Of a stretch of 64,000 bases of DNA, positions 43,911 through 48,595 are shown in pieces. The position numbers were made by a program, and so were the translations under genes. The DNA is from Acidobacteriaceae bacterium (lineage in GTDB: Bacteria > Acidobacteriota > Terriglobia > Bryobacterales > Bryobacteraceae): contig JADCJL010000115.1 of NCBI GenBank assembly GCA_020247055.1, positions 12,095 through 76,094 on the forward strand, written 5' to 3'. The notes under the pieces are model-generated. The model ran no database searches, was not told the DNA's origin, and saw nothing but the letters and a program-made list of their open reading frames with translations. Positions within the stretch are counted from its first letter, which is position 1; the number at the start of each line of letters is the position of its first letter.

Positions 43911-45200
43911 GTGCGCCGGCTGTTCCTGCTGTCCGTCTTCACTGCCCGGGTCTTCGCGGACCCGGGCAGTGCTGTTTGCGCCCCCTGCCACGCCGAGATC
44001 GTCGAACGCTTCTCCCGCTCCCGCATGGCCCGCACCGCGGCGGCGGAATCGCCCGGGAACTGGTCGCTCGGCTCCGGCGCCATCGGCAAAAGCTATATAA
44101 CATTTCTCGACAACTTCCTCGTCCAGTCGCCCCGCTCCTACTTCGCCGCCACGCGCTCCTACGGCATCTCCCCCGGCTTCCCCAACGCTCAAACCCTCCG
44201 CCCCGTCGAAGAGCCCTGCCTGCAGTGCCACGCCTCCGGCGTCCAACTCGTCAAGGGCACGCAAAACCAATACGCCAATCCGCCCTTCGCTGAACCCGGC
44301 GTCACCTGCCAGCGCTGCCACGGCCCCGCCGCCCACCACTCCGTCAACCCGGCCAAGCTCCCGCCCGAACGCCGCGACAACGTCTGCGAACAGTGCCACC
44401 TCACCGGCGCCGCCAAGGTCACCCGCGCCGGGCGCAACCCCTACGACTACCAACCCGGCGACCGTCTCGGTGACTTCGTCTCCCTCTTCGTCAACGGCGC
44501 CAAAACCAACGCCACCGACCACGCCGAACAACTCGCCGAAAGCGCCTGCAAGCAAGGGGCCGGCGACAAACTCTGGTGCGTCACCTGTCACGATCCCCAC
44601 GGCGGCCGCAAGACCAACACCTGCCAGGGCTGCCACACCCCGGACCGCTGCCACCGCGGCCCCCGGTGCGAAAGCTGCCACATGCCCAAGGCCGCCAGCA
44701 AAGACGCCCATGTCGCCTTCACCAACCACCGCATCGGCCGCCCCGCCCCGCCGCCGCGCCCGCTCCGCCTATTCTGGAACGCGTCCATCCCGCCCCGCGA
44801 CCTCGCCCTCGCCCAACCCTCCATCCCCCGCCTCGAACGCGTCGAACCGAAAGACGCTGCCGTGCTCACCCAACTCGGCCAGCTCTACGACCAGGCCGGC
44901 CGCGGCGCCGACGCCGTCCGCGTCTACCGCGAAGCGCTCCGGCTTAACCCGGCCGAACCCACCGCCGCCGCCAACCTCGCCATCTACGAGGCCCAACGCG
45001 GCGAAACGGCCGCCGCCGAAGCCCGCTGGCAGGACGTCTTCGCCCGCTACCCCGGCCTGCCCGGCCCGGGCCTCAATCTGGCCACCGCCCAACTCCAGCG
45101 CGGCGACCGTCCGGCGGCCATCGCCACCCTCCGCCGCCTGCTCCGCTTCCACCCCGGCCACGCCCAGGCCCGGGAGATTCTCAACCGGCTCACCCGCTAA
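43911..45200 (+). CDS. heptahaem c-type cytochrome fused to a C-terminal TPR domain
   Basis: The GTG start immediately follows the receptor's TAA stop. There are seven CxxCH motifs (CAPCH, CLQCH, CQRCH, CEQCH, CVTCH, CQGCH, CESCH). The C-terminus has TPR-like repeats (LGQLYDQAGRGADAVRVYREALRLNP). Confidence 0.8.
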   Translation: MRRLFLLSVFTARVFADPGSAVCAPCHAEIVERFSRSRMARTAAAESPGNWSLGSGAIGKSYITFLDNFLVQSPRSYFAATRSYGISPGFPNAQTLRPVEEPCLQCHASGVQLVKGTQNQYANPPFAEPGVTCQRCHGPAAHHSVNPAKLPPERRDNVCEQCHLTGAAKVTRAGRNPYDYQPGDRLGDFVSLFVNGAKTNATDHAEQLAESACKQGAGDKLWCVTCHDPHGGRKTNTCQGCHTPDRCHRGPRCESCHMPKAASKDAHVAFTNHRIGRPAPPPRPLRLFWNASIPPRDLALAQPSIPRLERVEPKDAAVLTQLGQLYDQAGRGADAVRVYREALRLNPAEPTAAANLAIYEAQRGETAAAEARWQDVFARYPGLPGPGLNLATAQLQRGDRPAAIATLRRLLRFHPGHAQAREILNRLTR

Positions 45201-45222
45201 GCCTGCTACCTTGGAAGTTCGG

Positions 45223-46860
<1,638 letters not shown>

Positions 46861-47364
46861 TTAGTTCGTCCGCACCGCGACGAGGGTGGACGCGTCAAAG
46901 GGGCCCGCATCGAGGCCCACGTCCACCTTCACGTCAATGTTCTTGCAGATGGACGGCGTGCACGCCTGCCCCTTCACGCCCACCTTGCCCACGGCGCCCT
47001 CGCGCTTCACCGGCGCGGCAAACTGCGCTTCGCCCTCGAACCCCCAGGTGAAGATGCGCAGTTCGGGCTTCGAGAAATCCTGCGGCGCGGTCTGCTTCCA
47101 GGGCCCGGTCACCGTCAGCCCTTCGCCCACGATCACCTTCGTCGGCAGGTCCGCGCTCAGCGCCTTCTTACCCTTCAGTGCTTCCACGGCCCGCACGGCG
47201 TTGTCCATCGCGAACGTGTGCCAGCCCTTACCCAGCTTTACGCGCACCACCAGTTGGTCGCCCGCCAGGCGCGCATCGTAGATCGCGCACACCTCGTCGT
47301 CGACCATCACCTGCACGGGCGCGCCCCAACCCGTCGCCAACAGAACCAAGCTCAGTAGTTTCAT
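46861..47364 (-). CDS. exported DsbD-N-terminal/DsbC-corrector-like domain protein (tentative)
   Basis: It has the signal peptide MKLLSLVLLATGWG, is beta-rich, and carries a C-terminal GQACTPSICK Cys pair resembling the Y-x-G-C...C motif of the DsbD alpha-domain family. Its start overlaps the upstream gene's stop as ATGA. Confidence 0.45.
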   Translation of the reverse strand: MKLLSLVLLATGWGAPVQVMVDDEVCAIYDARLAGDQLVVRVKLGKGWHTFAMDNAVRAVEALKGKKALSADLPTKVIVGEGLTVTGPWKQTAPQDFSKPELRIFTWGFEGEAQFAAPVKREGAVGKVGVKGQACTPSICKNIDVKVDVGLDAGPFDASTLVAVRTN

Positions 47365-48575
47365 TTTCGAAAGCTCATCTGCATCGTCTTCAGCGGCATC
47401 TCAATCCGCTTGCCGCCCCGCAGCACTTCGAGCGTGGCCGCATCGCCGGGCGCCTTGCGCAGGATCAAATACAACGAAGCCGTATGCGCATCCGGATCGA
47501 CGCGCTTGCCGTCGATGCCGGCAATCACATCGTCCTCCTGCAGCCCGTGCAGTTCCATGGTCCGCGCCGTGCTCGAGACATACTTCACGCGGCTGGCAAA
47601 GCCTTCGGCCGGCAGCCCGAGCTCCTGCTTTTCGGCCGCGCTCAGCGGCCGGTCGTCGAAGTAGAAGCGCGGCTCCACGCTCGACTGGCGGAACTTGGTC
47701 TCCGACCACCACCACTGCGGCGGCAGCGCCATCGTCACCTCCACCATCTTGCCGCCTCGCTCCACGGTCAGGTGCGCTTCCCGCGCCTTCCGCGGCGTCT
47801 CGTTAAAACGGTGCTGCACGTCAGCGAAGGTCCACACCACTTTGCCTTCCCACTGCGCGATGCGGTCGCCCGCCGCGAGCCCGGCCGCGGCGGCTGCCCC
47901 GTTGGTCTCTTTGATCACCAGCCCCTTCGGCACATCGAGAAAGATGCCCACGCGCTTCAGATCCGGCGACCGGTATAGGTGCACCATCTTGTCGAGCGTC
48001 CCGTCCTGATGGCGGTGCAGGTTCTGGTAGTCGCCAATCAGATGGCACTCGACGCACTGGTTCCGCGCGAAGGTCCGTTCGACGAGCAGCGAATAGTTCT
48101 TCGGGAAATCGGGCTTCGGCCGCGGCGGCGCCGGCGGGCGGTGGGCGTGCAGTTCCAGCCCCTTGGCCGCGGCCAGCGTCAGGCTTTCCAGGTTCAGATA
48201 AGTATCCGGCGAAGCGTTGTCGCGCCCGCCGTAGCGCAGGTAGATCTGCTCGTCGGCGTTGAGCAGGTAGAAGTAGATCGTGTTGTTCCGGTCGTGTTCA
48301 AAAAGACCAATATCGATCGTATCCATGCGGATAATGCGCACGGTAACGTACTGCCGGAGCAGTTTGCCGAGGGGCGAATCTTTCGGTGACAGCACAACCT
48401 GTGCGTCAAATGTTCGGCCGTTCGTTCAAGGTTCGCAGCGAAACTCGAGGAAAATCGGCTTGCCGGTCGCCTTCGCCATTTTCAAGGCTTCCCCATAGTT
48501 GTCGAGCCAGACGATATCATCATCTTGGGCCACCGCCAGCGCGGCCAAACCGATAAGAAGCAGCAAAACCCGCAT
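47361..48575 (-). CDS. candidate selenoprotein: exported thioredoxin-like (C-E-P-U) protein with a CxxCH motif and two PDZ domains; in-frame TGA at 48426..48428
   Basis: ATG at 48575 gives MRVLLLLIGLAALAVAQDDDIVWLDNYGEALKMAKATGKPIFLEFRCEP-TGA-TNGRTFDAQVVLSPKDSPLGKLL... The reading frame is continuous with track ORF 47361..48395 (48575-48395=180). The TGA occupies the second redox position of the Trx-fold motif. PDZ-like GLAAGDRIAQWEGKVV and GLQEDDVIAGIDGKRV lie downstream. The alternative reading is a pseudogene or two separate ORFs. Confidence 0.5.
48372..48419 (-). promoter_or_regulatory. SECIS-like stem-loop downstream of the in-frame UGA
   Basis: The RNA reads GGCCGAA-CAUUU-GACGCAC-AGGUU-GUGC(U)GUC-ACCGAAAGA-UUCGCCC. 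The upper stem is 7 bp with one bulged U and an AGGUU loop (48388..48407). The lower stem is 6 bp with a C-C mismatch. The structure was folded by eye only. Confidence 0.35.
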
Positions 48576-48595
48576 AATTCCCACATTGTAGCAAC

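Follow-up and report, generated by a model that had tools for sequence, protein, structure and literature searches.

A 64,000-nucleotide stretch of acidobacterial DNA, called the window here (Acidobacteriaceae bacterium, assembly GCA_020247055.1, contig JADCJL010000115.1, positions 12,095 to 76,094), carries on its minus strand a reading frame that is broken once, by a TGA at 48428..48426. Is this codon the end of a very small gene, or is it read as selenocysteine (Sec) within a larger one? An earlier, sequence-only reading of the window had proposed a selenoprotein of the CxxU type with the in-frame UGA at the redox position. That proposal now finds support in a match to the curated family NF041199, in the pairing of TGA with Cys among homologs, and in a selenocysteine insertion sequence (SECIS) hairpin. 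We consider it very probable that the locus is one gene for a 404-residue exported selenoprotein with thioredoxin-type (Trx7) and PDZ domains, that its UGA is most likely decoded as Sec by way of the hairpin, and that the protein most likely has a periplasmic redox function.

Coordinates are those of the whole window, and the Sec codon was entered as Cys for Pfam and NCBIfam scoring. Translation of the minus strand from ATG 48575 gives 49 sense codons (MRVLLLLIGLAALAVAQDDDIVWLDNYGEALKMAKATGKPIFLEFRCEP) and then the TGA. The frame past the TGA is uninterrupted down to a stop at 47363..47361, making 405 codons including the stop and a product of 404 amino acids. The translation thus reproduces the coordinates and the length of about 404 residues given in the sequence-only reading, in which the TGA was the only break in the frame. 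The same reading held that the open reading frame (ORF) caller had split the gene, and the mechanical ORF list does contain two pieces, 48426..48584 (52 residues) and 47361..48395 (344 residues, GTG start). The GTG taken as the start at 48395 falls inside the 3′ arm of the SECIS hairpin. GenBank MCA2969067.1, "PDZ domain-containing protein", is the exact 344-residue product, without the signal peptide and the active site. The terminator of the 404-residue gene is itself TGA (47363..47361), indicating that UGA is not reassigned genome-wide.

The NCBIfam equivalog model NF041199, "Trx7/PDZ domain-containing (seleno)protein", matches residues 22–396 over model positions 2–389 of 390, with 424.2 bits against a curated cut-off of 300. 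As the architecture of NF041199 prescribes, C-E-P-U stands at residues 47–50 in an N-terminal thioredoxin-type domain and is followed by PDZ domains. By this profile match the 404-residue protein is a member of the known Trx7/PDZ selenoprotein family. It has the same CxxU motif, the same Thioredoxin_7 plus PDZ architecture, Sec and Cys forms among its relatives, and a SECIS element directly 3′ of the UGA; nothing essential differs. By exhaustive profile search the family numbers 4,601 members. It is widespread in Acidobacteria of soil and freshwater and is also present in further lineages, most of them unidentified; one homolog with Cys comes from Verrucomicrobiales, and the neighbours on one contig are of Planctomycete type.

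The first report of the family, under the name "Putative secreted serine protease MucD", drew on ocean metagenomes (Zhang & Gladyshev 2008, PMC2398784). The account of the family there gives 2 Sec and 12 Cys sequences, as well as a predicted SECIS, and suggests a thiol-related redox role, with no further function named in that account. A 2022 review (PMC9312934) lists a "PDZ domain-containing protein, pfam13899, CxxU", and a 2026 review (PMC13188914) places the family among the CxxU selenoproteins; both entries cite Zhang & Gladyshev 2008. Because the family, the CxxU motif and the SECIS element are already in the literature and in NCBI curated models, the feature must count as already known. 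The old protease name does not apply to the 404-residue protein. Its two PDZ domains resemble those of the HtrA/DegP/DegQ/MucD proteases and of RseP in sequence and predicted fold, but the trypsin-like domain of the HtrA-type proteases is absent, with no Pfam Trypsin match. TIGR02037 scores 44.8 bits against a cut-off of 416, and aligns residues 224–392 to model positions 268–431, the PDZ part only. The identity as a MucD protease is ruled out, since only the PDZ part of HtrA-type models aligns.

The closest relatives were examined at 80 genome loci with 54–95% protein identity, all from metagenome-assembled genomes (MAGs) and mostly labelled Bryobacterales, Bryobacteraceae or Solibacteraceae. 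The best 120 database matches are all 321–363 residues long and cover only 79–87% of the query; therefore all gene callers truncate at the same place. The TGA follows RCE[PA] in 81 of 81 sequences, the 80 loci plus the window, and TAA, TAG or a Cys codon never takes its place. In the same set the TGA is preceded by a signal peptide and then W[LF]xxYxxAxxxAKxTxKP[IL]F[LV]E[FY]RCE[PA], and it is followed by xxGRxFDAQVVLSP. The 30 codons 5′ of the TGA have entropies of 0.71, 0.53 and 1.16 at the three codon positions, so that third positions are the most variable, as expected for translated sequence. The 11 codons from the TGA to the first possible restart are also conserved as protein. Judged by these alignments, the conserved TGA pattern is far beyond chance.

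One locus of this close sample, L003 (MAG C4_MAG_00032), has an extra in-frame TAG about 110 codons past the Sec TGA (…DFPKN*PLLVE…), which is probably an assembly error or a sign of a pseudogene. When the window was scanned crudely for further frames with coding character that run on across a TGA, no convincing second selenoprotein candidate emerged.

Which residue aligns with the TGA, and whether homologs are single polypeptides, had been named beforehand as a check. Among the homologs this site is occupied by TGA or by Cys, and those with Cys are single polypeptides. Full-length homologs with Cys aligned to the TGA contain CVPC, CDPC or CEQC, for example (P0245, P0276, P0287 and others), and a few homologs have lost the second Cys of CxxC. 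A word-indexed search with the N-terminal domain turned up no close homolog with Cys; its one seemingly full-length hit was P0121, discussed below. More distant relatives were sampled from 80 metagenome loci and from four contigs obtained by exact look-up, and 73 loci of a distant subfamily were resolved. The resolved loci comprise 33 with CxxU, 15 with UxxU and 25 with CxxC, so that TGA is present in 48 of 73.

An apparent Trp at the site in P0121 (L081:467-469) was rejected as a variant: the DNA reads TGA, and the gene caller evidently used genetic code 4. L081 is a short low-GC contig, and P0121 was called by JGI. Code-4 gene calls can thus mask selenoproteins as apparent Trp variants.

The fifteen UxxU members of the distant subfamily have two in-frame TGAs 9 nt apart (F-R-U-x-P-U), then a single hairpin. 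They are found at L085:2959-2973, L086:2932-2946, L093, L100-L103, L105, L109, L114, L131, L147, L159, L164 and L166. This diselenide-type variant may be undescribed, as the tables of the two reviews give the family as CxxU with one Sec.

Directly downstream of the UGA lies a small hairpin with the apical loop GGU (48399..48397) at a distance of 26 nt. Alone, it folds at −8.7 kcal/mol with 9 pairs and one bulged U, and with GGU (or A-GGU-U) as the loop. The bacterial SECIS (bSECIS) criteria as worded in PMC13188914 call for an apical loop of 3–9 nt with G in its first two positions, an upper stem of 4–16 bp, a distance of 16–37 nt from the UGA, and a minimum free energy (MFE) of ≤ −7.5 kcal/mol. 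The hairpin at 48387..48408, with a loop of 3 nt, 9 bp, a distance of 26 nt and −8.7 kcal/mol, lies within all of these limits.

The sequence from +21 to +40 after the UGA (GACGCACAGGUUGUGCUGUC) is essentially invariant in 74 unique Bryobacterales sequences. Six consecutive third-codon positions in it, three of them fourfold-degenerate, are invariant in 72–74 of the 74; the fourfold sites on either side are free to vary. At the closing pair, 42 of 75 sequences have UA, 20 have CG and 3 have UG, and the switch between UA and CG is made by synonymous changes of Phe and Ser codons. The distant members that contain TGA all have an 8-bp hairpin in the same codon register, GACNNNCA-G[G/U]U-UGN'N'N'GUC, and the CxxC members are without it. 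The mean MFE of the segment +15..+50 is −11.3 kcal/mol for CxxU, −12.5 for UxxU and −6.7 for CxxC forms. In an alignment of 53 sequences the five upper pairs are 94% paired, versus 80.5% in shuffles and 24–51% in slid controls. The covariation score of this alignment is 0.443 versus 0.167, and 0 of 500 shuffles attain 0.443; one upper-stem pair is AU in 22, CG in 16 and GC in 13. The segment 48360..48430 had been singled out in advance as the place to look for a SECIS-type structure. The hairpin found within it has frozen synonymous sites, covaries, and is absent from Cys forms, which is strong comparative evidence that it acts as a recoding signal.

The hairpin resembles the bacterial SECIS model represented by E. 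coli fdhF, likewise a coding-region hairpin just 3′ of the UGA with a small loop starting G-G-U and one bulged U. The fdhF loop is GGUC on a GCA/UGC stem, as obtained by folding. Compared with fdhF, the loop here is 8 nt farther from the UGA, and the bulged U is on the 3′ arm instead of the 5′ arm. Most likely, SelB carrying Sec-tRNA(Sec) would bind the hairpin (48408..48387; GGU loop) 26 nt downstream, and would deliver Sec at the UGA before release factor 2 could terminate.

Other explanations of the TGA have to be weighed against this. In one of them the TGA is the true stop of a 49-residue exported peptide, and the 344-residue PDZ protein starts independently, at GTG 48395 or at another downstream start. 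GenBank splits the locus in this manner, with MCA2969067.1 as the second product, the best 120 matches all have the length of that product or close to it, and some relatives have an ATG right after the TGA (e.g., MEGRVFDAQ). However, no start is conserved; T, I, M, V, L and Q all occur directly after the TGA, and orthologs differ in where their start was called. The protein between the TGA and GTG 48395 is conserved, and a split would run through the active site of the thioredoxin fold, with no signal peptide left on the large fragment. With Cys homologs that are single polypeptides, a stop that is TGA in 81 of 81 cases, and a hairpin that tracks the TGA and is absent from the CxxC forms, two separate genes are very improbable. 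The TGA could instead stem from an error in sequencing or assembly, or from a mutation of TGC or TGT that disabled the gene, in what is otherwise an ordinary CxxC protein or a pseudogene. It is one substitution away from TGC, TGT or TGG, the window apparently comes from a MAG, and the extra TAG of L003 demonstrates that such assemblies do have defects. Yet the same TGA recurs in 80 independent assemblies and in dozens of metagenome contigs from different studies, a structured element accompanies it, and there is no decay on either side. An error or a disabling mutation therefore has practically no chance of being the explanation.

The UGA might also be read without SelB and the Sec pathway, with Cys, Trp or another residue inserted by an opal suppressor, a tRNA(Sec)-like tRNA(Cys) or an allo-tRNA. 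Non-canonical tRNAs of the suppressor type have been described from Acidobacteria, where allo-tRNAs are reported too, and tRNA(Cys) of the selC* type is known from other phyla (PMC5389517). The lack of Sec machinery at the sampled sites fits such read-through as well: tblastn with E. coli SelA, SelB and SelD found no selA, selB or selD in the 64-kb window or in the fetched loci, and no tRNA-Sec was detected in the window by ARAGORN and Rfam or in 43 fetched loci by ARAGORN. But in the sequence of its loop and in its spacing the downstream hairpin agrees with the SelB-type SECIS model, and in a curated selenoprotein family this residue is the classic redox site for Cys or Sec. In addition, TGA is the real terminator of the same gene, which would make general suppression costly, and selenoproteins have been reported in Acidobacteria (PMC1794560). 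Insertion of a residue other than Sec is hence improbable.

Several points nevertheless weigh against a Sec-containing periplasmic oxidoreductase. Sec machinery in this genome, and with it the decoding of UGA as Sec in this organism, is inferred from the conserved UGA-plus-SECIS signature and from the older report that some sequenced Acidobacteria contain selenoproteins (PMC1794560). Folding of the single sequence is unremarkable (z = −0.25), because so small a hairpin becomes conspicuous only when sequences are compared. No Rfam family matches around the TGA, where hits are at chance level only (E > 3). The upper hairpin is invariant within Bryobacterales, and its covariation comes from distant lineages only. 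The hairpin also overlaps the conserved peptide FDAQVVLS, so that part of the conservation is protein-level; the constraint on synonymous sites is not. As to function, there is no DsbD-beta or CcdA membrane partner adjacent to the selenoprotein gene, the distant subfamily loci are without the DsbD-alpha-like neighbour described below, and the functional model would be an extrapolation for all members of the family. Despite these points, we hold the selenoprotein to be the right reading of the locus.

Table 1. Features of the Trx7/PDZ selenoprotein gene and its partner gene in the window
Feature	Position	Strand	Basis
Complete coding sequence of the predicted selenoprotein; Sec is residue 50	47361..48575	-	translation and NF041199 match
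Putative signal peptide MRVLLLLIGLAALAVA, probable cleavage AVA/QD	48528..48575	-	read by eye from sequence
Putative redox motif C47-E-P-U50	48426..48437	-	TGA (48428..48426) in 81 of 81 orthologous sequences; aligned to Cys of CxxC homologs
Candidate SECIS hairpin U-GAC-GCACA-[GGU]-UGUGC-(U bulge)-GUC-A	48387..48408	-	RNAalifold consensus
Thioredoxin_7-like (DsbD-gamma / AGR2-like) domain, about residues 20–145	48141..48518	-	Pfam, PDB profile, Foldseek
CxxCH motif C174-V-E-C177-H178	48042..48056	-	sequence
PDZ domain 1, about residues 211–287	47715..47945	-	Pfam PDZ_6 (7.9e-7) and PDZ
PDZ domain 2, about residues 307–400	47376..47657	-	Pfam PDZ_2, 4.8e-14 at residues 343–395
Partner gene, 167-residue exported DsbD-N (alpha-domain)-like protein with Q-A-C-x4-C-K motif	46861..47364	-	Pfam, synteny

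The domains of the 404-residue protein are given in Table 1 with the partner gene. What the sequence-only reading had said about the architecture holds. The exported nature of the protein agrees with the N-terminal MR, the hydrophobic core and the AVA/QD site, all read by eye, and with equivalent hydrophobic N-termini in 80 of 80 related loci. The two PDZ domains are recovered by Pfam, and the CxxCH motif is present. The Thioredoxin_7-like domain, which is split by the TGA, stands with a reservation. By Pfam alone it is sub-threshold (PF13899, 23.9 bits versus a threshold of 27, residues 23–80), but a family profile matches AGR2 in the PDB at 5.8e-7 over residues 20–133, and a structural match to 3f9u points the same way. 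In the profile comparison with the PDB, PDZ domain 1 matches the PDZ domains of DegP, DegQ and RseP, and PDZ domain 2 is matched over residues 307–400.

Structural matches were obtained with an AlphaFold2 model of the CxxC homolog P0245 (pLDDT 85, pTM 0.79). The Foldseek output has no query coordinates, and matches were assigned to domains from the size and description of the target. The PDZ tandem of the model is similar to DegP, DegQ and RseP. The match to 3f9u_B, an exported cytochrome-c-biogenesis-related thioredoxin domain, has a TM score of 0.62 normalised to the target and presumably covers the thioredoxin-like domain.

The C, C and H of the CxxCH motif are each at least 90% conserved in a family alignment of 109 sequences. 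The motif is retained even in homologs with a degenerate thioredoxin CxxC, and in the P0245 model it is at the start of a confidently modelled helix. No cytochrome family matched the 404-residue protein in the Pfam scan. The motif may be an attachment site for haem c, or a second redox or metal site.

The partner gene lies directly downstream of the selenoprotein gene in 77 of 80 loci, and in the window its ATG overlaps the selenoprotein stop (ATGA). Its match to Pfam DsbD_N is sub-threshold (22.2 bits, cut-off 25). In its C-x4-C motif, both Cys (C135 and C140) are kept in 77 of the 78 sequences compared. The protein P0245 (GenBank MCG8600862.1, Verrucomicrobiales, 606 residues, CVPC) is a natural fusion of a Trx7/PDZ protein with a DsbD-alpha-like domain. 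The partner and the C-terminal domain of P0245 are 30% identical (E 6e-30), and their Cys pairs line up. Foldseek on the P0245 model also gave a match to N. meningitidis nDsbD (6dps, TM score 0.72 normalised to the target), which probably covers this C-terminal domain, to judge from the size of nDsbD and the DsbD_N-type motifs there. The existence of the fusion argues that the selenoprotein and partner genes of the window are functionally linked.

The other flanking genes encode an ABC-F ATPase, a xylose-isomerase-like TIM barrel protein and a GFO/IDH/MocA oxidoreductase. They are conserved only among the closest relatives; the alpha-like gene is the only one conserved as a neighbour. Just past the convergent ABC-F ATPase gene is a gene for a multihaem cytochrome c / TPR protein (Paired_CXXCH_1, Cytochrome_C554, TPR), indicating that the organism makes c-type cytochromes. 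The long ORFs of this region, at 43911-45200 (+) and 44470-46860 (+) of the window, overlap, and the start of the ABC-F gene is therefore probably well downstream of 44470.

Upstream of ATG 48575 there is no obvious Shine-Dalgarno sequence. On the minus strand, within 48579-48594 of the window, there is a TACAAT hexamer whose end is 10 nt ahead of the ATG (ttgcTACAATgtgggaattATG). To judge from the translated frames upstream in L001 and L002, these two loci probably share the TACAAT context. The selenoprotein gene may have an mRNA with a very short leader or a leaderless one. The consensus promoter scan of the window did not call the hexamer, and the promoter and terminator scan was uninformative.

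The selenoprotein is most likely a periplasmic thiol/selenol-disulfide oxidoreductase, by analogy with DsbD (DipZ). In DsbD, electrons pass between the gamma and alpha domains. The likeness to the present locus lies in a Trx7-type domain with an active-site pair beside an immunoglobulin-like DsbD_N-type protein that has its own Cys pair, the two being encoded side by side and sometimes fused. The locus differs from DsbD in that no beta/CcdA membrane domain is present in the operon, Sec takes the place of the second Cys, PDZ domains and the CxxCH motif are added, and both Pfam matches are sub-threshold. In the proposed mechanism, the PDZ tandem would hold peptide substrates or partners, and the C-E-P-U selenylsulfide would exchange redox equivalents with the co-transcribed DsbD-alpha-like protein (46861..47364) at the Cys pair of the latter. 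Such an exchange would resemble the gamma-to-alpha step inside DsbD.

A bolder version, which we regard as rather unlikely, makes the locus a new periplasmic redox module. In it, haem c bound at the CxxCH would exchange electrons with the CxxU selenylsulfide, this in turn would exchange with the stand-alone DsbD-alpha-like partner, the PDZ domains would select substrates, and the UxxU relatives would use a diselenide. If true, the module would amount to a DsbD-like relay in which neither the membrane beta domain nor the cytoplasmic thioredoxin takes part.

What is added here to the family is the DsbD-alpha-like partner and its natural fusion, the near-invariant CxxCH, and the UxxU relatives. 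The partner, the motif and the UxxU relatives go beyond the descriptions of the family given in the accounts cited above from PMC2398784, PMC9312934 and PMC13188914. The annotation needs to be corrected, since MCA2969067.1 and the listed orthologs appear only as a truncated "PDZ domain-containing protein" of 344–348 residues. Counts of the Bryobacterales selenoproteome are therefore probably underestimates. Sec forms are common in the family, as the 48 of 73 resolved distant loci demonstrate. The partner gene, the natural fusion, the CxxCH motif and the UxxU forms provide concrete hypotheses for a first biochemical study of this uncharacterised family.

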